Source: Alphaproteobacteria bacterium (lineage in GTDB: Bacteria > Pseudomonadota > Alphaproteobacteria > RF32 > CAG-239). From it: a DNA stretch of 64,000 bases. The notes beneath the pieces were generated by a model, which was given only the letters and a program-made list of their open reading frames with translations, was not told where the DNA came from and did no database searches. The position numbers were made by a program, and so were the translations under genes. The stretch spans positions 19,403 to 83,402 of the forward strand of contig JAZNJJ010000026.1 in assembly GCA_045577985.1 (NCBI GenBank), given 5' to 3'. The number at the start of each line of letters is the position of its first letter. Position 1 is the first letter of the stretch. Positions 10,217-40,693 of the stretch are shown here, piece by piece.

Positions 10217-10227
10217 TATAACCTTCC

Positions 10228-11564: not shown

Positions 11565-11609
11565 AAGATTACTCCACTTTATGTTAGAATAATCATTATT
11601 TATTTATAT

Positions 11610-12611: not shown

Positions 12612-12736
12612 ATCCGCTCCTTCTATATTTATTTAAGAATAGAATAAATTATAAAAAATATTAAGTAAACAAGTATTGATTTTTTATACCATTTTGCATA
12701 TTATACGGCAGGGTTAAATATAGAAAGAAAACTTAA

Positions 12737-14475: not shown

Positions 14476-15230
14476 TGCCAATACCTATATTAGAAGTTAA
14501 AAATTTATATGCTCGAGTTGATGGTAAAGAAATTATAAAAAATTTTAATTTAACCATTAATAAAGGTGAAGTTCATGCAATTATGGGACCAAATGGAGCT
14601 GGAAAATCTACATTATCTTATGTATTAACAGGTAAACCAGGATATGAAGTGATTTCCGGAGATGTTTTGTTTAAAGGAAAAAATTTATTGGATATGAAAC
14701 CGGAAGATAGAGCTTGTGAAGGATTGTTTTTAAGTATGCAATATCCTGTTTCTATCCCTGGTGTAACGTGTAGTAATTTCTTGAAACATGCAATAAATTC
14801 CATGCTTAAATACAAACAACAAAAAGAGTTAGATGCTGCCGAATTTTTAAAGTTATTAAAAACAAAAGCCAAAGAACTGGATATAAGTCCGGAAATGCTT
14901 AAAAGAGAAATAAATGTTGGATTTTCTGGCGGCGAAAAAAAACGTATGGAAACTTTACAAATGAGTTTATTAGAACCTTGTTTAGCTATATTAGATGAAG
15001 CAGATTCAGGACTGGACTTTGATGCCTTAAAGTTGGTGGCAGATGGAGTTAATAAACTAAGAAATGAAGATAATGCTCTTTTGATTATTACTCATCATTT
15101 GAATTTATTGAATTATATTGAACCTAATTTTGTACATGTTTATGCAGATGGTCATATTGTTAAATCCGGTGATAAAAATTTAGCTGTAGAACTAGAAAGC
15201 AATGGTTATAAAAATTTTTTGGATATCTAA
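14475..15230 (+). CDS. sufC: Fe-S cluster assembly ATPase SufC
   Basis: Walker A GPNGAGKST, ABC signature FSGGEKKR, Walker B AILDEADSGLD. Confidence 0.9.
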   Translation: MPIPILEVKNLYARVDGKEIIKNFNLTINKGEVHAIMGPNGAGKSTLSYVLTGKPGYEVISGDVLFKGKNLLDMKPEDRACEGLFLSMQYPVSIPGVTCSNFLKHAINSMLKYKQQKELDAAEFLKLLKTKAKELDISPEMLKREINVGFSGGEKKRMETLQMSLLEPCLAILDEADSGLDFDALKLVADGVNKLRNEDNALLIITHHLNLLNYIEPNFVHVYADGHIVKSGDKNLAVELESNGYKNFLDI

Positions 15231-16487: not shown

Positions 16488-16944
16488 ATTTTTGCAATAT
16501 TCTAAATAAAGCGGGACGCATGAATTTTCCTTGCCATAGCCCTATTCCTTTTTGTTTAGCATCTTGTTCATCAGATAGGTATTTTTCTGTTCGATATCGG
16601 GTAGCCCATCCGGCTCTAATCATTTCTTGATTTAATGAAACATTATTATCAATAAAGCATTCACAAAGTTTTCTATTATATTTATCACTTTGTTTCAAAC
16701 ATTCGCAATTAACATCTTTATTTGCTATTAATTCTTGCAAGTATTGTGTGGATTTTTCTCCACAATTATATTCTTCAGCTAAAGCATTTTCGCAAATTTG
16801 TAAGTATTCCGGAGCATCAATCCCTTCTAAACGGATACGTTCATTATTTTGTTCTAACGAATCTCCATCCACAACTTTCAAATCGGCATGAGCAAATTGT
16901 GAAAAACATAAGAAACAAATGAATATTATAAAATATTTATACAT
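16474..16944 (-). CDS. secreted thermonuclease (staphylococcal nuclease, SNase-like)
   Basis: Signal peptide, then VVDGDSL...IRLEGIDAPE and a C-terminal GLW motif typical of SNase homologs. Convergent 14-nt overlap with sufD. Confidence 0.7.
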   Translation of the reverse strand: MYKYFIIFICFLCFSQFAHADLKVVDGDSLEQNNERIRLEGIDAPEYLQICENALAEEYNCGEKSTQYLQELIANKDVNCECLKQSDKYNRKLCECFIDNNVSLNQEMIRAGWATRYRTEKYLSDEQDAKQKGIGLWQGKFMRPALFRILQKFKNN

Positions 16945-17071
16945 TTTTACCTCGTATTCATATTATTATGTTAAAAAAAATTAGGCAATAGCTATTTTAT
17001 TTACTTTTCTTTCATATAATATTGTTATTGTTAGCTATATGTTTGTAACTAGTCTATTTAAAGGTATTGCT

Positions 17072-18106
17072 ATGTTAAAAAAATTAGGAATGTTATCTGC
17101 TCTTTGTTTGACTCTGTTAGGTTGTCAATACAGTGATTTTGGTACAGATGAAATTGATACGGTTTTTCAACAACCTAATATAAAAGTACCAAATTCAATT
17201 GTAGTATGTCGAGCAAAACAATGTGCTCCAGCCAGATTATCTATGTCTAAAGAATATATTTATAATACTTTATTACATATGTTTGATAGCAATGCTCGCA
17301 GAAAAGCATTAATATGTGCCGCAGATCCGAATACTCATGCTTGTACAGAAAATTATATATCAGTTCCAATAACGGTTGGTATTACTCCAGCGTATATGTA
17401 TGTTGATGATGTTAAAATTACCGATGTATCAATTAGCAAAAAGAGTACATCTGCATTTAATTTAATATTGAATTGGAATGTATCATATAATGGTCAAACG
17501 CCAGTATGTCGTCCAAGCAAAACTTTGTTATATGCAAAAAATATTGATAATGTTATTATGGAAGACAATGGATACACCTGTAAAATGACAACCATTGGAA
17601 CCAGCACCATCAAGACATTATTTGCTATTGATTATATTGATTTAGACTATGGATATATCGGCGGTTTCTATTCTATCGGATTATCTGGACCTGCATTTGG
17701 AGGTGGAGCTGGTTACATGATGCTTCGCTTACCGGAAGAAATTACTTTGGATCCAAAAGATTTTATGGTTGATAAAGATGGAGGCGTTGTTAGAAGAGGA
17801 GATCCATATGTGAGTGCACCTCAACCAATTCCTGCCCAACAAAAAGATACATCTAAGCAAGGAGCTAGTGTTCAAGCTTCACAATCAACCACAGTTCCTA
17901 ATGTAGATACAATCATAAAATATAATCATCCTTCAAAAGATTATGATAATGCTAAAGCGGCTATTGCAAAAAAGAAAAAAGAAGATGCTGAAGCCTTGAA
18001 TTATGAAGGAGTTAAAGTTTTTCCTGTAGCTTCTACAAACAAAAAACCTCCTGTAGTTGCTCCTAAAAATAAAAACGTATTAACTGATTACAGAGAATAT
18101 AAATAA
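17072..18106 (+). CDS. hypothetical lipoprotein
   Basis: ORF 17039..18106 trimmed to MLKKLGMLSALCLTLLGCQ (lipobox). Several Cys pairs and a Gly-rich segment. No motif recognised. Confidence 0.5.
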   Translation: MLKKLGMLSALCLTLLGCQYSDFGTDEIDTVFQQPNIKVPNSIVVCRAKQCAPARLSMSKEYIYNTLLHMFDSNARRKALICAADPNTHACTENYISVPITVGITPAYMYVDDVKITDVSISKKSTSAFNLILNWNVSYNGQTPVCRPSKTLLYAKNIDNVIMEDNGYTCKMTTIGTSTIKTLFAIDYIDLDYGYIGGFYSIGLSGPAFGGGAGYMMLRLPEEITLDPKDFMVDKDGGVVRRGDPYVSAPQPIPAQQKDTSKQGASVQASQSTTVPNVDTIIKYNHPSKDYDNAKAAIAKKKKEDAEALNYEGVKVFPVASTNKKPPVVAPKNKNVLTDYREYK

Positions 18107-18358: not shown

Positions 18359-21300
18359 ATGGCAAAATTTCAGAAGTTTGTTGCAACATTTGTTGCGTTA
18401 GTAGGTATCGTTCTGTTCGGCTCATGCACAGCTGATGGTTTTGAAGATACTCGTTCGTATCCTACTCATGTGGATACAATTAAGATCGTGAAAGACCATG
18501 TTATGGTTAATGACCTCACCCATGACATCGATACGGCTTTAACAGATAAGGCCAGCGATGAAATGGAAGCTAAAATGAGAATCTACAATATCCTTGACGG
18601 AGAAGTTGTTGATTCTTTTAGTATGACCGAATATCCGACTATGGATACTCACATATACTGCCTGAAGGATAATTATGTCATTACTGAAGAGCAGATTGAG
18701 CCGGTATTGGTTTCTTCTGAACTTAGAAGAAATTATAATCGTGATCATGTGAGTTATAACGGATATGAAGAAAAAGATACTTTAATTCTGTCGTTTAACG
18801 ATGGACAGGTTGTTTCTGTTCCGGTGATTATTTATGCATTTTCAGCTGAAGTTAAAGATGATGTATGCCATTTTGGTTCAGACTCATTGATTAGTGCTAA
18901 GCTGACAAAAGTGCAAAATATTAACACCTCTAAGAACACGACTAGAGCAACTTATGTTTCAAGTGTCTTAACAACTGAGTATTCTGTAGAATTGACATTT
19001 GCAGAAAAAAACACCAAGAGAGATTCTATTTTTAATGTAAATCTTAAGACTTATGTTAATCGTAAGGTTCTCTCTGAAGATGCGATTGATAAAGTTGAAG
19101 TAATTAACAAAAATCGTAAGGTTATTGATGAAACAACTGAGCAAATCTCTTTTGATAAAATGTATACCATGAAGAGTGGTGAAGTTATCAAAGAACCATT
19201 CTCTCGCATTTTGAAAAGAGAATTTAAGGGTATAGCTCCTTATGAGAAATACGTTTCTTCATTTGATTATGCCTTTGATAAATCTAATGGTGTTGTTGTT
19301 AGCGGAAATGAAAATAGTGTCGAAAAGGAAGGTAACTGGAATGTATTCGGTAAAACTGATAAATATTCAGCAAATATTTCTAATGGAATAGAGGCTGAAC
19401 TTATTGTTACAGATTATTCTCTTTATCACGAGAGAGCCGTTTACAGAGATTCTCATGTAGAAGTTGCTTTTGGATATGAAAATGTTGAAGCTACAGAAAT
19501 AGCTAGCAATGTTTCTGCCAAAGGTTCTGATAAAGAAGGTTTTGATAAGGCCGTTCTCAACAATGAGATCAGGACTCTATATCTCGGATATACTCAAAAT
19601 TTGATGGAAGATGTATATCTTTATCAAACTGCAACGAGTATTCAGGGATATGACTTGGAAAATCCTAAACTTCAGATTCTAGATGATAAGGTTATTGCCT
19701 CAATCGATTTTGTTATCAATTATACTGATGGCAAAGACGTGAGAGAAACCGACAAAATAGAACTTCCGCGTTCTATTTCTTGCCTGACAGATTGGACTTG
19801 TATTGAAGCAAATTCAAACCAGAAGACAGATACAGCTATTGTTGTTATATCTGCTTCTAATCAAAAGAGTGAAGGTTTTTGGTCTTATAAAAATCAGACC
19901 AGAAATGTTTCAACTTTAGCTCATTTGAATTCTTCTAAACAAACCAATAAATGGTCTGTGGTTGTACCAAACGAAATTGTTTATTCTCGAGAAGGAAAAA
20001 CATATAATTTTGGAGAAATAGAATTTTTTGCAGATGAAAATGGTGCCGACGTTGTCTTCGTAAAAGAAGAAAATGGACTTTCTGTTTACAAATATACCGA
20101 TAAGTTGAATGTTATTTATGGTGAAAATACTGTGAATACATCTGCTCCAGGTACAATAAAAGTTGACGGAAAGGGTATTAAGAGTAATAGCTATAAAGAC
20201 AAGAAGATCGTTGTTAATTCAAATAACGTGATTGCTTCTCTGACATGGATTACTACTTATAATGACGGCACAGAAAAGACAGAAAGTGTTAGCAAAACAT
20301 TTCCTCGTGAACTTGTTTGCAACACAAACTGGAACTCTAAAGAAGCTAATGCAAATCAGACTACTGGTAATACAAATGTATCGATAGTTAAATCTGAGCC
20401 TGTTGTAGATGGTAATTGGGTATTCATAAAAGAAACCCGTTCAATTTCAACAACAGCAAAATTGGCTTCCTCTTCTCAGGCAAATGAGTGGACTTCTATT
20501 GATCCTAACAGCATTGTTTATACTCAAAATGGTGTAACTGTTGATTTTGGAACTTTAGATTTTTCAGCTACAAAGTCTGATGCTAAGACAACACTTGAAA
20601 GCACTGTTAAAAATGTTGAGACATATAGTTACGTTTGTACTATTAATGTAGCTTTCGGTTCTAACAGTCTTAACAGTTCGGCTCCCGGTACAATTATCGT
20701 AGAAAAAGCTCGTGAAGTTGTAGATCATGAAATTCGTGATCCAAAGCTTGTTGTTAACAGTGAAGATGTTACTGCTACATTAACATGGGCAACTATCTAT
20801 AATGATGGTACTGAAGAAACAGAATCTGTGAAGCAGAGTTTTGCAAGAAGTCTTGAAGTGTATACTAACTGGTCTTCAAAGGAAAACAATGCAACTCAAA
20901 CAACAGAATCTGCCAACACATCTTTGTTGAGTTCTAACAGTAAGAAGGAAGGTTTCTTCACTTATGTAAATGAAACCAGACAGATTACTACTCTTGTAAA
21001 TTTGGCCAGCTCTACTCAGAAAAATGGCTGGAACTCTATTGATCCAAATAGCATAGTTTATTCTCGTGAGGGTAAAACTTTTGCATTTGATAAAATTGAG
21101 TTTAGCGCATCTGAGGCAGGAGCAAACGTTAAGTTGAAAAATGAGACAGCTAATAGCTCGACTTATTCTTATACAGATAAGATAAACGTTGTTTACGGTG
21201 GCAACACTAAAAATTCAACGGCAACAGGAGAGATTATTGTGGATGTTGTTGTTTCTGGTTATGATATAACAAATCCTCAGCTTATCATTAATAACGATAA

Positions 21301-22240
21301 CGTTATCGCTAAACTGAACTGGATTACTAAGTATTCTAATGGTTCAGAAACTAGCGAGGCTATAACTAAAACTTTCACTCGCTCCTTTAATTGTTATACA
21401 AACTGGAGCTCTAAAGAAGCTAATGGCAATCAAAACACTGGTTCTGCTACGGTAAGCGTTTTGAATACTAAAGCAGAAAAAGATGGGTATTGGTCTTGGA
21501 ACGTTGAAACTCGCGATATTAAAACTATTGCAAATCTCAACTCTTCCAATCAAACCAACGGATGGAAATCTATTGATCCGAACTCAATAATCTTTACACG
21601 TGAGGGTAAAACTTATGATTTTGGAAAAGTTGATTTCAATGCTATTGAGAATGGTGCAACTACCAGTATTAAATCAGAAGATGATATGGTAATCGTATAT
21701 AATTATACTGATGTTATCAACGTAAGTTTCGGTAGCAACACATTTAATAGTTCTGCTACGGGAACAATTAATGTTGAGAAGCCATGGAATCCTGATTTTC
21801 CTGCAGATTGGGGTAAGTTTGTTAAGGCTACAGCAACTGTTTCATGTAATGAAGATGTAAAAGACTGGATTTATACATGGTCATTACATTTTGAAAATGG
21901 AACTCTTCCTGTAGTGGTTAGACGTAATGCAAATGAGCCAGAAATAAACACAAATTACTTTGAGGCCATAACTGATAGTCGTTTTAATGGCGGTTCGTAT
22001 GTTAATGGCAAGTGGGTAAATTCTATTGCTTCAGATGAAAGCAACTTTATGTTGTGGACATCTCATGAAGATAAGGTGTTTAGAATGTTTACATATCCTA
22101 CAGCAACAGCTTGGAAATGGAACAATGGCAAGAATACTGTCTATACCGACGAATTTAACTTTGAACTGAAAAATGACGGCAAGGTATTAGTCATTACAAA
22201 AAATGGTAATGAATTTGCTCGTTATAAGGCTGGTAAATAA
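18359..22240 (+). CDS. 1293-aa surface lipoprotein with four tandem modules of about 180 aa (function unknown)
   Basis: Signal peptide ending LFGSC (lipobox) followed by acidic residues (CTADGFED). N/S/T-rich beta-type sequence. Internal repeats span aa 430-1143. No Shine-Dalgarno-like purine run before the ATG. Confidence 0.7.
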   Translation: MAKFQKFVATFVALVGIVLFGSCTADGFEDTRSYPTHVDTIKIVKDHVMVNDLTHDIDTALTDKASDEMEAKMRIYNILDGEVVDSFSMTEYPTMDTHIYCLKDNYVITEEQIEPVLVSSELRRNYNRDHVSYNGYEEKDTLILSFNDGQVVSVPVIIYAFSAEVKDDVCHFGSDSLISAKLTKVQNINTSKNTTRATYVSSVLTTEYSVELTFAEKNTKRDSIFNVNLKTYVNRKVLSEDAIDKVEVINKNRKVIDETTEQISFDKMYTMKSGEVIKEPFSRILKREFKGIAPYEKYVSSFDYAFDKSNGVVVSGNENSVEKEGNWNVFGKTDKYSANISNGIEAELIVTDYSLYHERAVYRDSHVEVAFGYENVEATEIASNVSAKGSDKEGFDKAVLNNEIRTLYLGYTQNLMEDVYLYQTATSIQGYDLENPKLQILDDKVIASIDFVINYTDGKDVRETDKIELPRSISCLTDWTCIEANSNQKTDTAIVVISASNQKSEGFWSYKNQTRNVSTLAHLNSSKQTNKWSVVVPNEIVYSREGKTYNFGEIEFFADENGADVVFVKEENGLSVYKYTDKLNVIYGENTVNTSAPGTIKVDGKGIKSNSYKDKKIVVNSNNVIASLTWITTYNDGTEKTESVSKTFPRELVCNTNWNSKEANANQTTGNTNVSIVKSEPVVDGNWVFIKETRSISTTAKLASSSQANEWTSIDPNSIVYTQNGVTVDFGTLDFSATKSDAKTTLESTVKNVETYSYVCTINVAFGSNSLNSSAPGTIIVEKAREVVDHEIRDPKLVVNSEDVTATLTWATIYNDGTEETESVKQSFARSLEVYTNWSSKENNATQTTESANTSLLSSNSKKEGFFTYVNETRQITTLVNLASSTQKNGWNSIDPNSIVYSREGKTFAFDKIEFSASEAGANVKLKNETANSSTYSYTDKINVVYGGNTKNSTATGEIIVDVVVSGYDITNPQLIINNDNVIAKLNWITKYSNGSETSEAITKTFTRSFNCYTNWSSKEANGNQNTGSATVSVLNTKAEKDGYWSWNVETRDIKTIANLNSSNQTNGWKSIDPNSIIFTREGKTYDFGKVDFNAIENGATTSIKSEDDMVIVYNYTDVINVSFGSNTFNSSATGTINVEKPWNPDFPADWGKFVKATATVSCNEDVKDWIYTWSLHFENGTLPVVVRRNANEPEINTNYFEAITDSRFNGGSYVNGKWVNSIASDESNFMLWTSHEDKVFRMFTYPTATAWKWNNGKNTVYTDEFNFELKNDGKVLVITKNGNEFARYKAGK
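19646..21787 (+). repeat. four tandem coding repeats (units start at 19646, 20189, 20726 and 21257; 177-181 aa each)
   Basis: Recurring blocks N.V(I/T)A.L(T/N)W(I/A)T.YNDG(T/S)E..E...K.F.R......TNW(S/N)SKEAN..Q.T ... IDPNSI(V/I)Y(S/T)REGKT..F ... Y.YTD.INV.(Y/F)G.N..NS(S/T)A.G.I.V. Confidence 0.85.
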
Positions 22241-22340: not shown

Positions 22341-22413
22341 TTTTTTTTATTAAAAAATCTTTCTCTCACAACGTAACATCAATAGGTTAAATTTTTCTAA
22401 ATTTGAAATTTCA

Positions 22414-22445
22414 TGTCCGAAAAAAAGGAACCCTTTTTTCGGACA
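22414..22445. repeat. 32-nt palindrome B1, the exact reverse complement of A1
   Basis: TGTCCGAAAAAAAGGAACCCTTTTTTCGGACA. Ends 5 nt before the SD of the pilin-like gene. Confidence 0.9.
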
Positions 22446-22463
22446 ATCAGAAGGGAGTTTATA

Positions 22464-23096
22464 ATGACAAATAGTAATCAATCTGGTCGTTCTATGATTG
22501 AAATGTTAGGTGTTTTGGCGATTATCGGCGTATTATCTGTCGGAGGAATTGCCGGATACTCTAAAGCGATGATGAAATTCAGAATCAATAAAACTATTGA
22601 TCAAGTTTCACAAATTGCACAAAATATTAGAATTTTATATGCCAGACAGAAAAATTACGGTAGTTTGAGTGCAAAAATAGTATATAAAGCAAATTTGGCA
22701 CCAAGAGAAATGTTTGAAGATGGTTCTGGTAGTTATGGCATGACTAATGCTTTTGGTGGTAGAGTTGGATTTGAAACAGCATCAAAAAGAGCTTCTCAAG
22801 ATAGTAAAGCTTTTGTTATTTCATTATATGATCTACCGGAAGAAGCGTGTATTGAACTGGCTACGCAAGATTGGGGTGGTGGCGAAGCTTCCGGTTTAAT
22901 TTCTGTAGGGATTGATACAAATTCTCGTCCTATATCTACGAGAGAAAACTGTGCAGGTGAAAGCGGTAGTGGTTATGCTATTGCTTGTGCAGGTGGTTCT
23001 GATGTTCCAGTTCCAATGCCAATAGATGTGGCTGTTGATGCTTGTAGTAATATTACAGGGTCCTCAATGGGGCGTTTAACATTCAAATTCTACTAA
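22464..23096 (+). CDS. type IV pilin-like protein, paralog P1 (atypical class III signal peptide)
   Basis: ORF 22413..23096 trimmed to MTNSNQSG|RSMIEMLGVLAIIGVLSVGG (8-aa leader ending in Gly, Glu at +5, 20-residue hydrophobic helix). C-terminal Cys pair (EEACIELATQDWG ... DVAVDACS). Confidence 0.7.
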   Translation: MTNSNQSGRSMIEMLGVLAIIGVLSVGGIAGYSKAMMKFRINKTIDQVSQIAQNIRILYARQKNYGSLSAKIVYKANLAPREMFEDGSGSYGMTNAFGGRVGFETASKRASQDSKAFVISLYDLPEEACIELATQDWGGGEASGLISVGIDTNSRPISTRENCAGESGSGYAIACAGGSDVPVPMPIDVAVDACSNITGSSMGRLTFKFY

Positions 23097-24945: not shown

Positions 24946-25060
24946 TTTTAGTCTCTTTATTTATGTCATGTATGTTATTTAGATTTTTTATTTCATAAAT
25001 GCAAGCACTAAAGCGCTATAATCAACGCTTTTATATGATTAAAATATTGAAAATGTTAAA

Positions 25061-25092
25061 TGTCCGAAAAAAGGGATCCCTTTTTTCGGACA
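25061..25092. repeat. 32-nt perfect palindrome A2 (TGTCCGAAAAAAGGGATCCCTTTTTTCGGACA), followed by T7
   Basis: Read directly. Confidence 0.9.
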
Positions 25093-25165
25093 TTTTTTTC
25101 ATTAAAATTTGTTCTCCTCGTAACGTAACATCAATAGGTTAAAATTTTCTGAATTTAAGATTTTG

Positions 25166-25197
25166 TGTCCGAAAAAAGGGATCCTTTTTTTCGGACA
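25166..25197. repeat. 32-nt palindrome B2 (one C-to-T difference from A2)
   Basis: TGTCCGAAAAAAGGGATCCTTTTTTTCGGACA, located just upstream of the SD. Confidence 0.9.
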
Positions 25198-25215
25198 ATA
25201 GAAAAGGAGAATATA

Positions 25216-25839
25216 ATGAAGAAAAATAACCAATCAGGTCGTTCAATGATTGAAATGCTCGGAGTTTTGGCGATTATTGGGGTATTATCTGTAGGCGGAA
25301 TTGCCGGATACTCAAAGGCGATGATGAAATATCGAATCAATAAGACGATTGATCAAATTACACAAATTTCACAAAATGTTAGAGCTTTATACGCAAGACA
25401 AAGACAAAAAAGATATCGTAATTTATATGAGGGAATTTTATATAAAGCAAATTTAGCTCCAAAGGAAATGTTTGGTTCGGGAAATATAATGACTAACGCT
25501 TGGGGGCAAAGATTTATGGTGGGGTCTGAAGGAGATGATCAAGAAAGCTTTGGTATTGCTACCCTTGTTCCTGAAGAAGCGTGTATTGAACTTGCTACAC
25601 AAGATTGGGGGAGTCGTGATACGACAGGGTTAATTGGTGTAATAGTTAGAGAGTATGATCTATCTGGTCCTAAACCCGATTTATCCACTGGTACAATAGG
25701 TAATAATTATGCTGTAGCCGTTCCCGGCGGCTCTAAAGTTTCCGTGCCTATGCCTGTTGATATAGCTGTAAATGCTTGTTCTCTTTCATCTGGTGATTAC
25801 TTTCCTGGTTATAAAGAGATTGGATGGGTGTTCCAATAA
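25216..25839 (+). CDS. type IV pilin-like protein, paralog P2, inserted between dnaJ and dnaK on the opposite strand
   Basis: ORF 25165..25839 trimmed to MKKNNQSG|RSMIEMLGVLAIIGVLSVGG. The N-terminal 60 aa are nearly identical to P1. Conserved EEACIELATQDWG and VPMPVDIAVNACS. Confidence 0.7.
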   Translation: MKKNNQSGRSMIEMLGVLAIIGVLSVGGIAGYSKAMMKYRINKTIDQITQISQNVRALYARQRQKRYRNLYEGILYKANLAPKEMFGSGNIMTNAWGQRFMVGSEGDDQESFGIATLVPEEACIELATQDWGSRDTTGLIGVIVREYDLSGPKPDLSTGTIGNNYAVAVPGGSKVSVPMPVDIAVNACSLSSGDYFPGYKEIGWVFQ

Positions 25840-27858: not shown

Positions 27859-27887
27859 ATATAGGGAGTAAATTTTATGTATGCAAG
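27859..27887 (-). promoter_or_regulatory. candidate sigma-32 (RpoH) type promoter of dnaK
   Basis: Minus strand reads CTTGCA-N15-CCCTATAT, against the E. coli sigma-32 consensus CTTGAA-N13-17-CCCCATnT. About 35 nt upstream of the dnaK ATG. Confidence 0.5.
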
Positions 27888-27925: not shown

Positions 27926-29413
27926 TTATTCAACACTTATTGTATAGCCGTTTTGACGTTCCATTAAATTACATGCTATTTCAAAATCATTGGCATTGCA
28001 TGAATATATTGTATATAAAACATCTCCACTTTTTACATAATCACCAACTTTTTTATGTAAGTCTATTCCTGAACCTAAATATTGTGTTGCACCGGCATAA
28101 ACTCCGATTTTATTAATAATGACATTATTAATCGCTTCAACAACTCCATCAAATGCAGAAACAACCTCGCGAGAATATTTTCCCAATTTGGGAACTTTTT
28201 TTAATCCTTGTGTATTTACAATTTGTTGAAAACTTTCTAAAGCTCTGCCACTTTCTAAAAGTTCTTTGGCTACAGCGTAACCTTTACCACCTCTTAATTG
28301 AGGATCAAATTCTAAGACCCTACCCGCTAAGAATAAAGATTTTTCTTTTAGATCTTGTGGGGCATCCTTATAATTTCTCAGAACTTTCATAACATCTCGG
28401 GCTTCTAAAACTGCGCCTATTCCGTTTCCTATTGGCTCACTACCATCAGTTATAACTGCATCAATTTCAATACCCAGCATATCACCGACATATTCTATTT
28501 GCTTGCGAATTCGCATTGCCTCATTGGTACTATGAATACGAGCCTTCTCTCCTACAGGGATATCCAAAACTAAGTGAGTTATTCCCATTGACATCATCAT
28601 TGATAATATGGATGCTATGACAAATTCGTTTTGATCTATTCCTAATTGACGACGAACATCATGTAATAATCGATTGGCTCTAGATATATAAAGAGCATCA
28701 TAACATACAATAGCTCCATTATTTGTGCGTAAGTGTTTTTGAAATTCGTTATCTTTAAGGTTTATTTCAGCCATACAACCTATTGTATCAGCAACACCTG
28801 CACATGATGTCAAAGAGTGAATACACGGTTTTGCTATGGGTAGTCCGTATGCAGCAACAATGGCCAAAACAATTAAATCTGTTTTATTGCCGGGTATTCC
28901 ACCTAAACAATGGTGATCAACTACTATACTTTTTTCATCCCAATGTAAAACCTTATTGCCAACTAATGCTTCTGTTAAAGAAACTAATTCAGAAGCACTC
29001 ATAAATGATGAACAAGCAACTAAAAAGGCTGCGATATCCATTTTTGAATATCTGCCTGAAGATATATCTTGCATAATATCTACATATTCAGATGATGTTA
29101 ATATATCTCCATTTATTTTGCGCTTTATGGCGTTTATACTTGGAGATGGGGATGATAAGCTTACACTTACCTCTATTCCTTCTGGCAAACCAAGTGCTGA
29201 AAATGCTTCATCATTTAATGCTATCTCATCTAGACCAACAATGCTCTCATCTTCAACAATTTGCAAAAAAGCATATACTGTTTTATTTTCACCTTGAATT
29301 TCAAGTTTGGTTATTTTGTTGATGTCATCAAGTTTATAAACTGTACAATTTTTGTTTATAATTGCAAAATTTTCACCAAACGATTTTAAAGATAAATGTT
29401 TTAGTTTGAGCAT
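27926..29413 (-). CDS. thymidine phosphorylase family protein (long ~500-aa form with N-terminal extra domain)
   Basis: Helical-bundle domain (LTSSEY..IMQDISSGRYSKMDIAAFLVA), an alpha/beta domain (DHHCLGGIPGNKT) and a PYNP C-terminal domain (VGDYVKSGDVLYTIYS). 14-nt gap after pilin-like P4. Confidence 0.7.
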   Translation of the reverse strand: MLKLKHLSLKSFGENFAIINKNCTVYKLDDINKITKLEIQGENKTVYAFLQIVEDESIVGLDEIALNDEAFSALGLPEGIEVSVSLSSPSPSINAIKRKINGDILTSSEYVDIMQDISSGRYSKMDIAAFLVACSSFMSASELVSLTEALVGNKVLHWDEKSIVVDHHCLGGIPGNKTDLIVLAIVAAYGLPIAKPCIHSLTSCAGVADTIGCMAEINLKDNEFQKHLRTNNGAIVCYDALYISRANRLLHDVRRQLGIDQNEFVIASILSMMMSMGITHLVLDIPVGEKARIHSTNEAMRIRKQIEYVGDMLGIEIDAVITDGSEPIGNGIGAVLEARDVMKVLRNYKDAPQDLKEKSLFLAGRVLEFDPQLRGGKGYAVAKELLESGRALESFQQIVNTQGLKKVPKLGKYSREVVSAFDGVVEAINNVIINKIGVYAGATQYLGSGIDLHKKVGDYVKSGDVLYTIYSCNANDFEIACNLMERQNGYTISVE

Positions 29414-29427
29414 TGTTATCTATACCA

Positions 29428-30051
29428 TTATCTAAATGACATTATTATTGTATTTGTATTACCACATGTATCTGTAGCAGTTCCTATACCCATAGGAGCT
29501 GGGTTTGTTGAATGCCCTGCTACAGCTAAATTAGCGGACAGTGAAGTGTTTAATCCAGATTGGATTGCACTATCAACTGAGGTTGGAGCATCCATATTAA
29601 CTGCTATGCCTCTAAAACCACTTGATGATGGACCACCCCAATTATTTGTAGCTATCTGCATACAAATATCTGTGCTTACATTTTCTAATTTTATTGAAAA
29701 TAAAACTCTTGGAGAACCAATGTAATAGATTGAATAATCAACATCTCCTGCACCAGTAAAACTAATGTTATCAGGATTAGATTCATCTTCGGTATATAAA
29801 AATGTGTCAGGTACAGCTTTAGCTTTTTTTACATAAGAATTAATTTGTGCTCCAGATGTTCCTTCATAATCTCTAGCAACAGTACGGACTTTACTGGCAA
29901 GTGTTGATACCTCATCCAATACTTCATTGATAGTGCTACTTGTTTGCATTTTATTTACTAAATTAAAACCACCAACAGATAATATTCCAACAATAGCCAG
30001 TACACCAAGCATCTCTATCATTGATCTACCTCTTTGGTAAAAATTTTTCAT
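29428..30051 (-). CDS. type IV pilin-like protein, paralog P4
   Basis: MKNFYQRG|RSMIEMLGVLAIVGILSVGG. Conserved C...IATNNWGG...SGF.GIAV and a C-terminal Cys. SD AAGGAG upstream. Confidence 0.7.
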   Translation of the reverse strand: MKNFYQRGRSMIEMLGVLAIVGILSVGGFNLVNKMQTSSTINEVLDEVSTLASKVRTVARDYEGTSGAQINSYVKKAKAVPDTFLYTEDESNPDNISFTGAGDVDYSIYYIGSPRVLFSIKLENVSTDICMQIATNNWGGPSSSGFRGIAVNMDAPTSVDSAIQSGLNTSLSANLAVAGHSTNPAPMGIGTATDTCGNTNTIIMSFR

Positions 30052-30078
30052 TTATTTTCTCCTTATTTTATATGTATT

Positions 30079-30678
30079 TTATTTACAACCTTTATACCAT
30101 AACTGAATAGTGTTATTTGAACCATTAGTACAATTTTCAACCGCTTTATCAACTGACATCGGATAATTTGATGAAAGAGAACTTACAGCAAAATCTTTGT
30201 CGGCACAATCACTTGTACAACTTTTAAAATATGAACCAACATCACTGTTGCCAATTGCAACACCTATCATTCCAGATGTTCGTCCTGTTCCCCAATCTGC
30301 GGTAGCTAATTTGATGCAACTGTCGTCAGAAAGATTGCTAATATTGATATTGAAATAGTCATTATCTCCATTAATCTGATATATTGAATCCATTATTCCA
30401 ACATATGTATTTGAACCGGAATCATAATATAAATTTGTTGGATAAGCATTTGACTTATACAAAAACAATGTATATGTTCTATAAGCTTTTTCATATTTGC
30501 AAGCAAACTTTTTTGCATATCTTGCTAAATCTGCTGTATCAGATAAAAGTTGTGCTTCGCGATGAGTTTGCATTGCTTTACCTATTATACCAAAACCACC
30601 AACAGAGAGTACTCCGACTATTGCTAAAACACTTATTGTTTCTAGCATTGTCCGACCAAGTTCACTTATTTTGAGCAT
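30079..30678 (-). CDS. type IV pilin-like protein, paralog P3
   Basis: MLKISELG|RTMLETISVLAIVGVLSVGG. Conserved DDSCIKLATADWGTGRTSGMIGVAI and a C-terminal Cys. SD GGAG upstream. Confidence 0.7.
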   Translation of the reverse strand: MLKISELGRTMLETISVLAIVGVLSVGGFGIIGKAMQTHREAQLLSDTADLARYAKKFACKYEKAYRTYTLFLYKSNAYPTNLYYDSGSNTYVGIMDSIYQINGDNDYFNINISNLSDDSCIKLATADWGTGRTSGMIGVAIGNSDVGSYFKSCTSDCADKDFAVSSLSSNYPMSVDKAVENCTNGSNNTIQLWYKGCK

Positions 30679-30707
30679 TATTTTCTCCTATGTATATTAT
30701 CACCTTC

Positions 30708-30728
30708 TAGCCCCAAAATATGGGGCTA
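30708..30728 (-). other. 8-bp GC-rich stem-loop without a U-tract between the 851-aa gene and P3
   Basis: TAGCCCCAaaataTGGGGCTA. No T-run follows it on the minus strand, so it could be a processing or stability hairpin rather than a terminator. Confidence 0.5.
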
Positions 30729-30734
30729 TAGCGA

Positions 30735-33290
30735 TTATTTTCGTTCTTCAGGTTTCATTGCTTCAGGAGCTTTCTGAATTTTCTTAATTTGCTCAGTGAC
30801 TGGCTTATATACAGTTTGTTGCCATGGACTTTCTTCAACATATTCATGCCCACAAATACTGATACCAAGACTACGTAATGCTGTTTCAGTTGGGATAAAC
30901 ATATCTAATCCATCATCTGTTTTTGTGCCAGAATGAGCCATACCATTTATTGTACAATCTTTGTAAATTAAAGCTCCGCCAACTGTAACATTTTGAATGA
31001 ATGTGTTAGCCAGTATTTCTGCTCCTTTATCTTCTGTATATCGATATCCTTCAATTCGAGCACTATTTTCTAAATAGTCTTCGCCATTTTTAAAGTCAGA
31101 TACATCTAATAGACCTACAGTTAAGAACCCACTTTTACCAACTTCTGGTAAGCTTAAGTTAAGAGCAAGAGGAGTATATTCTGTGCTTTTATCAAGCATG
31201 AACAAAGCTGTATTTTTGCTCGGATTAATGCGTACGGCACGAGCCTTTAATTCGTCATTACGAATTGTTTTAATATCATAACTGTTGTTTTCTTTATCTA
31301 CTAAATCTCCTGCAGTTAAAACGAATCTATCTGAGATTAATAGTCCTGCACCTTTTCTTCCATTTGGACTGGTTATTTGAACTATTGATGAACGCATACG
31401 ATGTATGGTTTCAGGTGTTAATGCTTTGCATGGATCTGTTTCTACTACACAGAAATTATCTAAGCTTTTTGCATCTCCTGTTTCAACCCATGTATCGTCG
31501 ACAACTTGGCACATTCCATCGTCTTTCACGTTACCATTTTCATCTATACAAGAATTTATGATATCAAAACTGCTGTATACATTTCCGTCTTCGAAGATAA
31601 CATCACATCCTTCTGAAACAACCAGACCATCTGATATTACTCCGCCAGAATCTAATACGACATCGCAAACTTCTTCATTTATAACAATTCCATCGCTGTT
31701 TACACCACCCTCAATAGTAATACCATCAGCTTTAACTCCACCATCTGCAACAATGGCATCGCAAGTTTCTTTGGTGAGAATTATTCCATCAGCCACAACA
31801 CCGCCTTTTGCTAATATATTATCACAAACCTCTTCAGTGATCGTAATTCCATCAGCAGTTACTCCGCCTTTCGCAACTATAGCATCACAGGTTTCTTCTG
31901 TAAGGATGATTCCATCAGCTACAACCCCACCTTTATTTGTTATATTATCACAAACTTCTTCCGTAATAATAATTCCGTCAGCATTTGTTCCGCCACTAGA
32001 AACAATTGTGTTGCAAATTTCTTCTTTGATAGAGAAACCATTTCCGTTAACTCCACCATCTTCATAAATCTCAACAACTGGAATAGCTGAGGTTGTTGGC
32101 GGACAGCTACAAGTACAAACACCATCTTCATGGAAAACTGTTACAGGTTCAGGTATAACAGGTGTAACAGGAACTGTTTCGGCAATAGGAGTAAATTGAA
32201 CAGCTTGTTCACAAGTTTGTGGACATACGCAAGGAGGACATGGACGACATTTAGAAATATCTGCTCCTGGACGACCTAACTCACAATCTTTGGCTTGATC
32301 ATATTCTTTTCTAAATCCACATTTTAATGGATTTAAGGCTCTTTCTTCTTCAATTAATGCATTACGTTGCATTGCCATCTCTGTAGGGCTTATACGTTGC
32401 ATTAATCTATCTTCAAAACCAGGTAGATTGCGTAAATTACTTGTTGCATCAGCAAATGCACGTTCAATTAATTTAACTTCACCATTTATTTCCCCGTTGT
32501 ATAATTCTCCATAACCAACACTTTCACCTTTCCAATATACTTTATTTTTTGTTAAATCCATTAAACGCCAGGTGATAGTTATTTCTGAAGAACCACTTCT
32601 AATATCTTCTTTTTTAGCTTCATCCCAATTATATTCATCACAAATATTCATAAAATAATCGGTAATCTCTGCCGTTAAAACATATTCAGGAAGCTCTGAA
32701 GGAACTTCTTCTAAACACAAATCTTGAGGCATTGGCAAAACCTTATAACAATCACCAACTACTTCTTCAAATACTGTATTAAAGGCAATATTTTTTTCCA
32801 TAATACGCCCCTTATTCAATACAGCTTCCTTATCAAAACGGCGGCAACCGAAAATACGGAATCGATAATTTCCTAATTTATTGGTATAAGGAGAATCTAA
32901 TTCACTATCTTTTATTCTAAAGTCTACATGAGATAAAGTAATTGGAGCCATTTGACAACAATTACGTTCTACCGCCTCAGCAACAACAGGATTATATGGA
33001 ACATAGTTTTTAACTTTTACACGCTCTACGCATTTTTTGCAGGTACCAGGGAAAAGACTGCCGTCTTTTGTGCAACGAACACATGGGCCTCCAGGAAAAA
33101 GACTTCCATCTTTATCTGTTGAACAATTAGGACAAATTCCTCCCGGAAATAAACTTCCATCCTTATTTAATCGCACATTTTGAGGAACGTTATTTTCATT
33201 ACCATATCCGGCAACAACTGTGCCGGCAGTAAGAATACTAAATCCTAATACAGCGGATAATATATATAACAATTTGTTATGTTTATTCAT
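30735..33290 (-). CDS. 851-aa secreted Cys-rich repeat protein with a C-terminal degenerate trypsin-like domain
   Basis: Signal peptide; 3x KDGSLFPGG-C..C (aa 43-83); Cys/Pro-rich linker (CRPCPPCVCPQTC); about seven 21-aa repeats GGV.ADGI.(I/L)TEE.CD.I..K (aa 412-570); C-terminal GAGLLISDRFVLTAGDLV ... NTALFMLD ... VTVGGALIY, which resembles a chymotrypsin-fold domain with all three triad positions replaced. Confidence 0.7.
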   Translation of the reverse strand: MNKHNKLLYILSAVLGFSILTAGTVVAGYGNENNVPQNVRLNKDGSLFPGGICPNCSTDKDGSLFPGGPCVRCTKDGSLFPGTCKKCVERVKVKNYVPYNPVVAEAVERNCCQMAPITLSHVDFRIKDSELDSPYTNKLGNYRFRIFGCRRFDKEAVLNKGRIMEKNIAFNTVFEEVVGDCYKVLPMPQDLCLEEVPSELPEYVLTAEITDYFMNICDEYNWDEAKKEDIRSGSSEITITWRLMDLTKNKVYWKGESVGYGELYNGEINGEVKLIERAFADATSNLRNLPGFEDRLMQRISPTEMAMQRNALIEEERALNPLKCGFRKEYDQAKDCELGRPGADISKCRPCPPCVCPQTCEQAVQFTPIAETVPVTPVIPEPVTVFHEDGVCTCSCPPTTSAIPVVEIYEDGGVNGNGFSIKEEICNTIVSSGGTNADGIIITEEVCDNITNKGGVVADGIILTEETCDAIVAKGGVTADGITITEEVCDNILAKGGVVADGIILTKETCDAIVADGGVKADGITIEGGVNSDGIVINEEVCDVVLDSGGVISDGLVVSEGCDVIFEDGNVYSSFDIINSCIDENGNVKDDGMCQVVDDTWVETGDAKSLDNFCVVETDPCKALTPETIHRMRSSIVQITSPNGRKGAGLLISDRFVLTAGDLVDKENNSYDIKTIRNDELKARAVRINPSKNTALFMLDKSTEYTPLALNLSLPEVGKSGFLTVGLLDVSDFKNGEDYLENSARIEGYRYTEDKGAEILANTFIQNVTVGGALIYKDCTINGMAHSGTKTDDGLDMFIPTETALRSLGISICGHEYVEESPWQQTVYKPVTEQIKKIQKAPEAMKPEERK
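31581..32057 (-). repeat. about seven tandem 63-nt (21-aa) coding repeats inside the 851-aa gene
   Basis: GGVVADGIILTEETCDAIVAK / GGVTADGITITEEVCDNILAK and similar units. They also produce a long antisense shadow ORF (31405..32067). Confidence 0.85.
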
Positions 33291-33301
33291 TATGTTTTCT
33301 C

Positions 33302-34825
33302 CTATACCTGTTTTGCGGGCATAACATATCTATACGATAATGCCTCTGCTATGTGTACTTTAGACACATTTTTTTCATTTTGCAAGTCTGCAATCGTTCT
33401 TGCCAACTTCAATGTTCGATGATATGCCCTTGCAGACATCTTCATTTTGTCTGCAAAGTTTATCAAAAGTTCTTTCGCATCAGCTGTTAATTGCGTAACT
33501 TCTTCAAGTATATCGCCTTTAAGTTGAGAATTTGTACGCAAATTAGGACAACCTAGCTGTATAAAACGCTCTTGTTGAATCTTTCGAGCCTTAATTACTC
33601 TGTTTCTGATTACTTCTGAACTTTCACCTTTTTTTACTTCAGAAATATCCCAAGGACTGACCGGAGGTACTTGTATATGTATATCGAATCTATCCATCAA
33701 TGGACCAGAAATTTTTGATTGATATTCTTCGGCACATTTTGGAGCTCTAGTACATTCTTGTCCATTATGTCCTAAATATCCGCAACGACAAGGGTTCATC
33801 GCAGCAATGAGCTGGAAATTTGCAGGATATTGAGTATGACAATTTACTCGTGAAATTGTAACGTAACCAGTTTCAATCGGCTGTCTTAGAGCCTCCAATG
33901 TTGCTCGATTAAATTCAGGTAATTCATCTAAGAACAGCACTCCATTATGTGCTAAAGAAATTTCACCAGGTGTCCCTTTTCGACCACCGCCGACTAAAGC
34001 AGGAGTTGAAGCATTGTGATGAGGATCTCGATATGGACGATCAAAACTAATTTCACTATCTTTTAATTCTCCGGCAATAGAATGAATCATACAAGTTTCC
34101 AAAGCTTCTTCGGTTGTTAAAGGAGGTAGGATAGTTGTTAATCTTGACGCCAACATGGATTTACCAGCTCCAGGAGTGCCAACCATTAATAAATTATGAG
34201 CTCCTGCCGCTGCAATTTCTAATGCTCTTTTAGCCGTTTCTTGCCCTTTAACATCTGACATATCTAAGTCGGATATCGGACTCTTTTTCTGTTTTGCAAT
34301 TGGATAAGGAAGCTGTTGAACTCCTTTAAAATGATTTATTAACGACAATAAATCCGGAGCTGCGACAATATCTTTCAATCCAGACCACACCGCCTCACTT
34401 CCTTGCCTTTCAGGACAAATTAAACCTTTATGTTTACGATTTGCATGAATAGCGACAGGGAGGACACCATTGACTGATAAAATAGATGCATCTAATCCCA
34501 ACTCACCAACAACAACATACCCCATTATATCTTCGGCAGGTATAATTCCCATTCCTACTAACAATGCTGTGGCAATCGGCAAATCAAAATGAGAGCCCTC
34601 TTTTAATAAGTCTGCCGGAGCTAGATTAATGGTTATGCGTTTTGCCGGTATTTCTAAGCCTATAGTGTTTAGAGCTGCTCGAACTCTTTCCTTGCTTTCT
34701 GCAATTGTTTTATCAGGAAGACCGACAATATTAAAAGCGGGTAATCCTGATGATATTTGCAACTGCAAATCCACGTCTAAAGTAGATAATCCATTAAAAG
34801 CGATAGTATTTACACGAGCTAACAT
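33302..34825 (-). CDS. comM: ComM/YifB Mg-chelatase-like AAA+ ATPase
   Basis: N-terminal Lon-protease-like fold start (MLARVNTIAFNGL...GLPAFNIVGLPD), Walker A GTPGAGKSM, Walker B VLFLDELPEF and a C-terminal Mg-chelatase subunit ChlI domain. Start trimmed to 34825. Confidence 0.9.
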   Translation of the reverse strand: MLARVNTIAFNGLSTLDVDLQLQISSGLPAFNIVGLPDKTIAESKERVRAALNTIGLEIPAKRITINLAPADLLKEGSHFDLPIATALLVGMGIIPAEDIMGYVVVGELGLDASILSVNGVLPVAIHANRKHKGLICPERQGSEAVWSGLKDIVAAPDLLSLINHFKGVQQLPYPIAKQKKSPISDLDMSDVKGQETAKRALEIAAAGAHNLLMVGTPGAGKSMLASRLTTILPPLTTEEALETCMIHSIAGELKDSEISFDRPYRDPHHNASTPALVGGGRKGTPGEISLAHNGVLFLDELPEFNRATLEALRQPIETGYVTISRVNCHTQYPANFQLIAAMNPCRCGYLGHNGQECTRAPKCAEEYQSKISGPLMDRFDIHIQVPPVSPWDISEVKKGESSEVIRNRVIKARKIQQERFIQLGCPNLRTNSQLKGDILEEVTQLTADAKELLINFADKMKMSARAYHRTLKLARTIADLQNEKNVSKVHIAEALSYRYVMPAKQV

Positions 34826-34826
34826 C

Positions 34827-35360
34827 TTACCACCTTGGAACATTTTCTCCACTACGCCAACGACGAGACGGATATACTCCTCTCTTCAACGTATCATATT
34901 TTGCAGACATACGCGGAATATTACTTAATCTTACATAGCAAGAGTTTTCAAGACGCTTAACACATTTTTCTACAGCTTCTTCAGGTCCACGACAATATGC
35001 CAAAATTCTAGTATTAGGATCTTGTAATACTACCTGATTTCTGAAATATTTGTTATTTTCAACATCTGGAAATTCTCCTTCAATTTCATCAGGATTAAAT
35101 TCCTTTGTCATGAACTCTTGAGATGTTTCAGTTGTAACAAAATCTGAACAAGCTGGAACTTCATATTGCCCCTGTTCATCATAAACGACTACGGTTGTTT
35201 TATTTTCACATTCTGGAACTAAAAACTCTTTTTCTTCTAAAGTTACATCTGCTCCATATTTCACCTCTTTAGATGGTAGCCTATGATAACTGTCTATTTC
35301 TACACACCCTGTGGTAAAAAATACGAAAAATAATATCAAAATTTTACAAATTTGCTTCAT
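34827..35360 (-). CDS. hypothetical lipoprotein (first gene of the comM / pilin-like cluster)
   Basis: Lipobox FFTTGC; acidic, with several Cys. Its stop lies 1 nt before the comM start. Confidence 0.5.
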   Translation of the reverse strand: MKQICKILILFFVFFTTGCVEIDSYHRLPSKEVKYGADVTLEEKEFLVPECENKTTVVVYDEQGQYEVPACSDFVTTETSQEFMTKEFNPDEIEGEFPDVENNKYFRNQVVLQDPNTRILAYCRGPEEAVEKCVKRLENSCYVRLSNIPRMSAKYDTLKRGVYPSRRWRSGENVPRW

Positions 35361-39787: not shown

Positions 39788-40693
39788 TTAGGCGGCGCCA
39801 CTTAAACTTAATTTAACTTCTGCTGATAATTTTTCAAAGGCTCTTTTTTCTATTTGACGAACTCGTTCTCGACTAATATTAAATTTATTGCCAATGTCAT
39901 CTAATGTTTGAGGAGAATCTGTCAACATTCTGTTTTTCACAATATATTGTTCTCGCTCATTTAACTTAGCTACAGCATTTAATAGAATCTTGTGTTTTAA
40001 TAAAGCTTCCTGTTTTTGTTCTAATCGACCTTCAATATTTTGACTTTTATCCGCAAGTAAATCTATTTTTTCTACGGTTTCATCATCTGCACCATAAACC
40101 GTCGTATTAAGAGAATAATCACCGCTGATACGACGGTTCATCTCAATAACATCTCGCTCATCTACAATTAATTCTCCAGCTATTTGCTTTACAACTGCCG
40201 GTTCTAATTCTTTATTTTCATATAGTCCCAATCTGGCTTTTATGCGACTCAAATTATAAAATAATTTTTTTTGTGCGGCAACTGTTCCAATTTTAACTAA
40301 GGACCACGAACGCAAAACAAAATCATTTAAGGCTGCTTTTATCCATAATATAGCATATGTCGATAACCGAACATTTTTACTTACATCAAATTTTTTTACC
40401 GCTTGCATCAAACCTATATTTGCTTCAGAAATTAAATCCGCTGTCGGTAAGCCATATCTTCGATATGTTAAAGCGATTTTCACAGCCAGACGCAAATGAG
40501 ATGTTATTAATCTCTGAGCGGCTTGCAAATCCCCTCTTTCTTTAAATTCATAGATTAAACGATTTTCTTCATCTTCTGTGAGAATCGGAAATTGTTTGAT
40601 TTGCTCCAAATAAGCATGTAGGCCATCATCTGCAACAATTGCAGGCAGATTACTTTTGTTTTCATAAACAACTATATCTGTACTTTTTACCAA
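39788..40693 (-). CDS. rpoH: RNA polymerase sigma-32 factor RpoH
   Basis: Sigma-70 regions 2-4 and an RpoH-box-like QKKLFYNLSRIKARL. About 300 aa. Confidence 0.85.
   Translation of the reverse strand: MVKSTDIVVYENKSNLPAIVADDGLHAYLEQIKQFPILTEDEENRLIYEFKERGDLQAAQRLITSHLRLAVKIALTYRRYGLPTADLISEANIGLMQAVKKFDVSKNVRLSTYAILWIKAALNDFVLRSWSLVKIGTVAAQKKLFYNLSRIKARLGLYENKELEPAVVKQIAGELIVDERDVIEMNRRISGDYSLNTTVYGADDETVEKIDLLADKSQNIEGRLEQKQEALLKHKILLNAVAKLNEREQYIVKNRMLTDSPQTLDDIGNKFNISRERVRQIEKRAFEKLSAEVKLSLSGAA

Follow-up and report, generated by a model that had tools for sequence, protein, structure and literature searches.

The subject of this report is a tight string of six genes on the minus strand of a 64 kb stretch of DNA (~32% G+C; called the window below, i.e. 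the whole stretch that was analysed) from an uncultured gut or rumen alphaproteobacterium. In order of transcription the genes encode a small lipoprotein, ComM, a secreted cysteine-rich protein of 851 amino acids (aa) that we call Big, two pilin-like proteins and a member of the thymidine phosphorylase family. We favour, with a probability of roughly 0.55, the view that the string is a mosaic of three units which genome reduction and local insertions have set side by side: unit A would consist of lipoprotein-comM-big, unit B of the two pilin genes and unit C of the phosphorylase gene. The tight spacing would then reflect compaction and not one dedicated DNA-uptake machine. In other words, in a compact genome close spacing and common direction can mimic an operon-encoded machine, and synteny reveals three layers of different age.

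Distribution of the six genes in related genomes

The six minus-strand open reading frames (ORFs) are located at 34827-35360, 33302-34825, 30735-33290, 30079-30678, 29428-30051 and 27926-29413. The gaps between them are exactly 1, 11, 56, 27 and 14 nucleotides (nt), which agrees to the base with an earlier description of the string made from the letters alone (the sequence-only reading). The gene identities given there were also right, i.e. a lipoprotein, ComM, a Cys-rich protein of 851 aa, two pilin-like proteins and a member of the thymidine phosphorylase family. The same reading knew of no described system of this composition; the literature searched gave nothing relevant on this gene combination or on type IVb pili in gut Alphaproteobacteria. 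The observation is thus confirmed. Its interpretation as one system is not, and the composition is new only as a mosaic.

The synteny sample comprised 85 related loci, of which 80 are species representatives, drawn from the 267 GTDB species that encode a relative of Big. The denominators differ between the counts: 80 species loci for the phosphorylase, 77 for the terminator, 72 for the comM-big gap and 65 loci with room for the pilin pair. A conserved six-gene order, as one machine would lead one to expect, was not found: only lipoprotein-comM-big is universal, and the pilins follow in 38-41 of 65 loci and the phosphorylase gene in 17 of 80.

Each of the six genes has many homologues, so they are not chance ORFs, and the identical string with the same gene calls is present in independent metagenome assemblies. 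An exact look-up of the 851-aa protein returned no record; the independent loci were recovered via the lipoprotein. Scanning the window region for promoters and terminators gave signals no higher than the shuffled background, and they were not used as evidence. An origin from a mobile element or prophage was considered and dropped, as the flanks consist of housekeeping genes (rpsF-rpsR-rplI, dnaK, dnaJ, rpoH, prmC, aspS) in conserved order.

The lipoprotein-comM-big unit

The first gene (34827-35360, minus strand) encodes a lipoprotein of 177 aa with a signal peptide and a lipobox-like TTGC; its homologues have canonical lipoboxes. Its C terminus carries the conserved motif YPxRRWRxGExVPRW. 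The protein matched no Pfam or NCBIfam family, and the homologue search returned close relatives only, none with a name or a family. Almost every related locus has a homologue ahead of comM.

The second gene, comM/yifB (33302-34825, minus strand), encodes a Mg-chelatase-like AAA+ ATPase of 507 aa that starts at ATG 34825, with an alternative GTG at 34852; the independent assemblies give the same length. The match to TIGR00368 is full-length (550.9 bits, cut-off 362.4), and the Pfam domains ChlI (PF13541, 4e-39), Mg_chelatase (PF01078, 5e-94) and Mg_chelatase_C (PF13335, 9e-30) are all detected. Genes of the comM/yifB type are widespread, also in bacteria that are not known to be transformable. 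The window protein itself is unremarkable, and its odd feature is the fixed pairing with two envelope-protein genes. In Gram-negative bacteria ComM serves as the helicase for branch migration specifically in transformation, with DprA recruiting it; its role is known from V. cholerae and Acinetobacter (PMC6158740, PMC12012524). For the gut clade a transformation role of ComM would be putative.

The trio lipoprotein-comM-big is found in every related locus with room for it. The comM stop and the first ATG of big are separated by a median distance of 11 nt, and this close coupling is seen in 72/72 species loci. We conclude that lipoprotein-comM-big is a conserved, tightly spaced unit with predicted co-transcription. 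The steady pairing of comM and big with the lipoprotein gene is a noteworthy feature of the clade.

The downstream border of this unit is marked by an 8-bp GC-rich hairpin directly 3' of the big stop (30708-30728, minus strand), with the sequence TAGCCCCA-TATT-TGGGGCTA. The sequence-only reading had noted that the hairpin lacks a U-tract, and this is borne out because the next sequence is GAAGGTGAT. In most relatives the same position carries a terminator-type element: 57 of 77 species have, no more than a few tens of bases from the big stop, a GC-rich hairpin that ends in a T-rich tail, with similar occurrence where pilins follow (31 of 43 loci) and where they do not (26 of 34). The window hairpin thus appears to be the terminator site of the relatives with its T-tail lost. 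The suggestion that separate terminators between the genes would speak against one operon therefore receives a divided answer, i.e. a terminator-type hairpin follows big in most species, and the window copy has no T-tail.

Sequence and fold of the Big protein

Big (30735-33290, minus strand) has over 1600 homologues, every one of them from an uncultured alphaproteobacterium of gut or rumen. The family is uncharacterised and occurs in at least 267 species. The protein contains 35 cysteines (4.1%) and begins with a signal peptide (residues 1-27, 33210-33290) that ends in ...TAGTVVA/GYG, the probable cleavage site (slash) being placed from the translation and the family alignment. The signal peptide contains no Cys and hence no lipobox. 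It is followed by three N-terminal (K/D)DGSLFPGxC..C repeats (33021-33170), which are conserved across the family and lie in a part that AlphaFold2 (AF2) modelled with low confidence.

The next part, the conserved N-domain (residues 90-345, 32256-33023), is predicted to have a CsgG/PelC/LptE-like alpha/beta fold followed by helices. When modelled alone it reached a mean predicted local distance difference test score (pLDDT) of 74 and a predicted template modelling (TM) score of 0.71. Foldseek placed the model nearest to CsgG (E 1.7e-6 to 1e-4, probability 1.00), with TM scores of 0.33-0.43, a root mean square deviation above 13 Å and an identity of only 8-12%. Further matches were PelC, LptE, CC_3750 (TM 0.41-0.47), Cj1090c and GNA1162. 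We take this as a likeness of fold class, not as family membership, because the TM scores are low (0.33-0.47); the likeness to channels and rings likewise refers to the fold class alone. In comparison with the CsgG/PelC/LptE lipoproteins we note that a lipobox is present in distant relatives of Big and absent from Big of the window.

The middle of the protein is a hypervariable, Cys/Pro-rich linker. In the window a 21-aa unit, GGVxADGIxxTEExCDxI, occurs seven times in it (residues 433-570, 31581-31994, minus strand); Tandem Repeats Finder reported periods of 63 and 126 nt at 31713-31995. The array is a lineage-specific expansion that is absent or different in homologues. The linkers of the homologues differ greatly in length and composition, which suggests that this presumably exposed segment evolves fast.

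The conserved C-terminal domain (30846-31403, minus strand; ~190 residues) has the HtrA/DegS fold of the S1C proteases. Foldseek matched it to Rv3671c, DegS, DegQ, HtrA2 and MucD in the PDB (E 3e-9 to 1e-7, TMt ~0.64). The pLDDT of this domain is ~65-80; the full-length model is poor (pLDDT 53.8) and only its C-domain is usable. The family profile gave a marginal match to the HtrA1 sequence in the PDB (E 0.94), which served solely to place the catalytic triad. In an alignment with active relatives the His/Asp/Ser columns are occupied by Asp662, Asn693 and Val770, and the same or equivalent substitutions are found in all aligned members of the Big family. A role as an active protease was rejected, all three catalytic residues being replaced. 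Big is thus, by prediction, a secreted protein that cannot be a serine protease.

Big shares the protease fold with HtrA, DegP and DegS, and its distant relatives are bona fide HtrA-like proteases. It differs from them by the Asp/Asn/Val triad throughout its family and by the lack of a PDZ domain (no match in Pfam or NCBIfam). Moreover, its protease fold is joined to a CsgG/PelC-like N-domain, to Cys-rich repeats and to a conserved tail: the protein ends ~35 residues past the protease fold, and the tail finishes in RK. MamO of magnetotactic Alphaproteobacteria also keeps an HtrA-like domain without catalysis, and Big resembles it in this respect. Since Big combines two ring-forming fold classes and there are precedents such as the inactive HtrA-like MamO, an oligomeric scaffold role is conceivable. 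We infer that Big most likely has a non-catalytic role in the envelope, in binding or scaffolding, and is probably oligomeric.

Origin of Big and its pairing with comM

An exhaustive search with the N-domain retrieved proteins of ~390-460 aa from outside the gut family, at 24-29% identity. These ~450-aa relatives, from Rhodovibrionaceae and other Alphaproteobacteria, are named 'S1-C subfamily serine protease' in their sources and combine the same N-domain with a strong Trypsin_2/HtrA-like domain (1e-30). The joint alignment shows an intact His/Asp/Ser triad in the active ones, and lipoboxes are present in the distant relatives P0295, P0301, P0273 and P0275. Two of these (P0273 and P0275) are intermediate proteins that are also inactive at the triad columns. 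The shared N-domain together with the comparison of triad and lipobox suggests that Big is a dead, enlarged descendant of a lipoprotein HtrA-like protease. It would have lost the lipid anchor and the catalytic triad and gained the Cys-rich repeats and the variable linker. The family thus seems to record stepwise the passage from an HtrA-type lipoprotein protease, via the loss of catalysis and anchor, to a secreted, repeat-bearing protein.

The genes of the active relatives P0295 and P0287 are flanked by a divergent his operon on one side and by hslV-hslU on the other; the Alphaproteobacteria that carry these hslVU-linked proteases are free-living ones. An intermediate genome (L088) has the order rsmI-yraN-gshB-gshB-lipoprotein(96 aa)-comM, followed by a HIT gene in opposite orientation, the pseudoprotease gene and, at a distance of a few genes, hslVU. 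Its 96-aa lipoprotein is homologous to that of the window (blastp 8e-13) and has the same C-terminal motif. In seven deep-clade gut loci hslVU comes after big, either immediately or within a few kb.

The arrangement in the intermediate genome suggests that comM became adjacent to big after loss of the his operon. The lipoprotein-comM pair would be old, and ComM presumably keeps its cytoplasmic branch-migration job in recombination. In the gut lineage, loss of the his genes would have brought the lipoprotein-comM block against the protease-hslVU block (step 1), and compaction of the junction would then have put comM and the protease gene into one transcription unit (step 2). The individual arrangements are those observed in the genomes; their order in time is our reconstruction. 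The literature searched contained no description of the pseudo-HtrA proteins or of their unvarying association with comM.

As a side observation, the ~450-aa lipoproteins with a CsgG-like N-domain and an active HtrA-like protease domain without PDZ are consistently found between the his operon and hslVU (L086 and L089). The function of this his/hslVU-linked lipoprotein protease family appears to be undescribed.

The type IVb pilin genes

The predicted products of the two genes downstream of big are type IVb pilin-family proteins. They are 199 aa (G/RTMLE; 30079-30678, minus strand) and 207 aa (G/RSMIE; 29428-30051, minus strand) long, and family alignment and profile place both in the family. 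The class III signal peptides have the form G/RSMIEMLGVLAIVGILSVGG and G/RTMLETISVLAIVGVLSVGG, and a hydrophobic N-terminal helix follows. The residues G8, R9, M11 and E13 are invariant across 26 aligned sequences of the family, as are Cys130 and Cys196. The 207-aa protein, which is also assigned by its homologues, passes the TIGR02532 prepilin domain threshold (17.0 bits, cut-off 16.3). Taken singly the two are below the Pfam PilS cut-off of 22, with 17.7 and 15.5 bits, the latter for the 199-aa protein. A PDB search with a single paralogue gave nothing useful and the family profile was needed; it found BfpA (2.7e-12), TcpA (1.1e-7), PilS (8.5e-5) and CofA (6e-4). The homologues grade into PilS/Bundlin proteins that are named 'type 4 pilus major pilin' in their sources.

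The window contains two more paralogues, both on the plus strand, which the sequence-only reading had missed. The third (25165-25839), with a probable start at ATG 25216 (MKKNNQSG/RSMIE), lies between dnaJ and dnaK and matches PilS (3.6e-10) and Bundlin (8.4e-9). The fourth (22413-23096) matches PilS (1.4e-11) and Bundlin (1.3e-10). A motif scan picked up both genes. Both pass the Pfam thresholds of these two families and share the N-terminus G/RSMIEMLGVLAIIGVLSVGG.

The window pilins have in common with the type IVb major pilins BfpA, TcpA, PilS and CofA the Glu5 prepilin motif, the hydrophobic helix and the C-terminal Cys (disulfide) pair. They differ by a short leader of ~8 residues and by Arg at +1. 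Moreover, the four paralogues lie dispersed between housekeeping genes and apart from pilus assembly genes: in the 64 kb of the window no secretin, ATPase or platform gene was found. The pilins of the cluster would feed a type IVb pilus that has its machinery genes at another site. The same scatter is seen in relatives, where pilin genes occur among housekeeping genes at varying sites, e.g. beside rplI and after dnaJ in L001. A dispersed family of type IVb pilin paralogues in a clade without a cultured member is of interest in itself.

The pilin pair follows big in 38-41 of the 65 species loci with room for it (~60%). It is essentially confined to species whose Big shares 55% identity or more with Big of the window. 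It is missing from the deep clade, in which big is succeeded by hslVU or by unrelated genes, and from the close relatives L043, L051 and L053. On this pattern the pair would have been inserted behind the terminator of lipoprotein-comM-big in one sub-clade (step 3).

Two side observations concern the surroundings of the plus-strand paralogues. Between dnaJ (end at 24945) and the pilin gene at 25165 there is a perfect palindrome with a 17-bp stem and T-runs on both sides (25058-25095), suggestive of a bidirectional terminator. Upstream of the pilin gene at 22413 lie genes for two predicted lipoproteins of 355 aa (17039-18106, plus strand) and 1293 aa (18359-22240, plus strand), neither of which matched a Pfam or NCBIfam family. 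As the 1293-aa gene ends 172 nt upstream of the pilin gene, the two form a second pair of a large exported protein and a pilin.

The phosphorylase gene

The last gene of the string (27926-29413, minus strand) encodes a protein of 495 aa from the archaeal-type thymidine/AMP phosphorylase family. The Pfam domains Glycos_trans_3N, Glycos_transf_3 and PYNP_C are all present. It exceeds the cut-off of the 'thymidine phosphorylase' model NF003338 (485.9 bits, cut-off 434) and stays below that of the AMP phosphorylase equivalog TIGR03327 (346.2 bits vs 535). The best PDB match is 4ga5 (E 2e-64), which is deposited as 'putative thymidine phosphorylase' and which we take to be the AMP phosphorylase of T. 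kodakarensis. The window enzyme shares with the latter the same three domains and the extra N-terminal region. It differs in that it falls under the equivalog cut-off, and its gene is not a conserved member of the cluster.

Only 17 of the 80 species loci have the gene. Its place is invariably behind the second pilin gene and ahead of dnaK or whichever gene comes next, and dnaK follows the pilins directly where it is absent. We therefore rejected it as a core member of the cluster; judged by its distribution, it is a late, lineage-specific insertion. It would have entered after the pilins and before dnaK (step 4), with a presumable role in nucleoside or nucleotide salvage.

Downstream, dnaK is co-directional and begins 101 nt after the phosphorylase gene, a neighbour not mentioned in the sequence-only reading. 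It is preceded by a sigma-32-type promoter-like element, CTTG-N18-CCTATAT (27859-27887, minus strand), which marks the downstream boundary of the cluster and which resembles the alphaproteobacterial RpoH (sigma-32) consensus. The rpoH gene itself is located at 39788-40693 of the window.

Alternative explanations

Several observations weigh against a mosaic. The window hairpin has no T-tail and all gaps are at most 56 nt, so read-through from comM and big into the pilin and phosphorylase genes is quite possible. The presence of the pilin pair behind big in ~60% of the species suggests a frequency above that expected for a random insertion site. The linkage of comM and big is kept down to ~35% identity of Big, which could reflect a functional link instead of inertia. 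The fold match of the N-domain, on which part of our view of Big depends, has low TM scores. Finally, in two species (L003, positions 1-14997, and L080, positions 1-14400) a complete type IVb machinery operon is located directly upstream of lipoprotein-comM-big-pilin-pilin and a pilT-like gene downstream of it, and there is no hairpin after big in L003.

The machinery in these two loci comprises a secretin, PAP_PilO, a 602-aa coiled-coil protein, a T2SSE ATPase, a T2SSF platform protein and a 182-aa protein; the gene of the PilT-family ATPase lies directly downstream of the pilins on the opposite strand. In L003 the first strong terminator comes after the second pilin gene. A prepilin peptidase was not seen in any locus examined, these two included. 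Since the arrangement occurs in only 2 of ~80 species, and since L068, a close relative of this lineage, is without it, we read it as secondary clustering.

The two loci also count in favour of another view, in which Big belongs specifically to the type IVb pilus, either as a periplasmic or outer-membrane collar or chaperone of the pilins or as a factor that the pilus presents or secretes. It would then have the downstream pilins as partners and a role comparable to that of TcpF/CofJ or PilY1, with comM and the phosphorylase gene present as passengers. The frequent position of the pilin pair directly downstream of big is in accordance with this, and so are the features of the protein itself: it is secreted, it combines an N-domain of the ring-forming CsgG/PelC class with a non-catalytic, potentially peptide-binding protease fold, and its hypervariable, repeat-rich linker is like those of surface-exposed proteins. 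The likeness to PilY1 (type IVa) and TcpF/CofJ (type IVb) is positional only, i.e. a large secreted protein beside pilin genes, and Big, by contrast, predates the pilin genes at its locus. Its ancestors neighbour hslVU and not pilus genes, it stays with comM and without pilins alongside in the deep clade and in L043, L051 and L053, a terminator usually parts it from the pilins (57/77 species), and pilin paralogues are scattered over several other sites of the region. No known pilus accessory protein was among the matches of Big, and no comparison aimed at such proteins was made. We regard this explanation as tentative, with a rather low probability. The sequence-only reading had offered a related idea, an adhesive fibre with a large accessory protein to which comM and the phosphorylase were neighbours only. 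For the phosphorylase this part stands; for comM it is wrong, since comM is tied to big more tightly than the pilins are. Big keeps its position in many species without adjacent pilin genes.

The ancestral neighbourhood points in another direction. As hslVU is the neighbour of big in the ancestral and deep-clade loci, and dnaK, dnaJ and rpoH are within 10 kb in the window, Big might be a holdase-like pseudo-HtrA stress factor of envelope quality control that belongs with the heat-shock genes and not with pili or DNA. HtrA-family proteins can act as chaperones without proteolysis, and the HtrA fold of the C-domain would fit such a role. The lack of a PDZ domain, the replacement of all three triad residues and the large Cys-rich and repeat insertions, atypical for chaperones, fit less well, and the closeness to the heat-shock genes may be plain synteny. 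Ahead of the lipoprotein-comM-big unit no promoter of the sigma-32 type was noted, and no search aimed at one was made. On balance we think this improbable.

Two further explanations assign the string to natural transformation. In one of them, comM would belong to the regulon of a type IVb pilus, a bundlin/PilS-type retractile competence pilus with the lipoprotein and Big as new envelope components; L003 and L080 would then represent the integrated form and the window the dispersed form. We keep a competence pilus under consideration, since comM is embedded in a pilus locus in these two species, and judge it doubtful. If it were true, natural transformation would gain a competence pilus of type IVb and two further envelope factors, and gene exchange by transformation would be indicated for abundant, unstudied gut bacteria.

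The other is the module for DNA uptake or scavenging that the sequence-only reading had put forward. Here the products of units A and B, optionally together with the phosphorylase, would act jointly: a retractile type IVb pilus would catch DNA, Big and the lipoprotein would serve in the envelope, ComM would integrate the DNA and the phosphorylase would salvage the degraded strand. The transformation-specific role of ComM (PMC6158740, PMC12012524) is in line with it, as are the predicted co-transcription of comM with two envelope-protein genes in 72/72 species, the place of comM between a machinery operon and the pilins with their pilT-family ATPase gene in L003 and L080, the tight gaps of the window and the missing U-tract after big. 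Nothing supports the module directly. None of comEC, comEA, dprA and comF, and no pilus machinery, was found among the ORFs scanned in the 64 kb window; the adjacency of comM is explained by synteny collapse, the his operon having been lost from between two ancestral blocks; the pilin and phosphorylase genes were inserted later and are restricted to certain lineages; and the machinery is adjacent in only 2 of ~80 species. With comM/yifB also widespread in bacteria not known to be transformable, we consider a joint module very unlikely.

Neighbouring genes

The gene content of the window includes dnaK, dnaJ, rpoH, rpsF-rpsR-rplI, secDF, sufBCD, dnaB, dnaA and dnaN. A gene of the SNase (staphylococcal nuclease) family (Pfam 1.2e-15) is located at 16474-16944 on the minus strand and is unlinked to the cluster; it is the only gene of the window with an obvious tie to the degradation of extracellular or periplasmic DNA. 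The genes dnaA and dnaN are found at 56494-59176, and near 48-50 kb the cumulative GC skew reaches its lowest point, which suggests that the chromosomal replication origin is probably inside or near the window.

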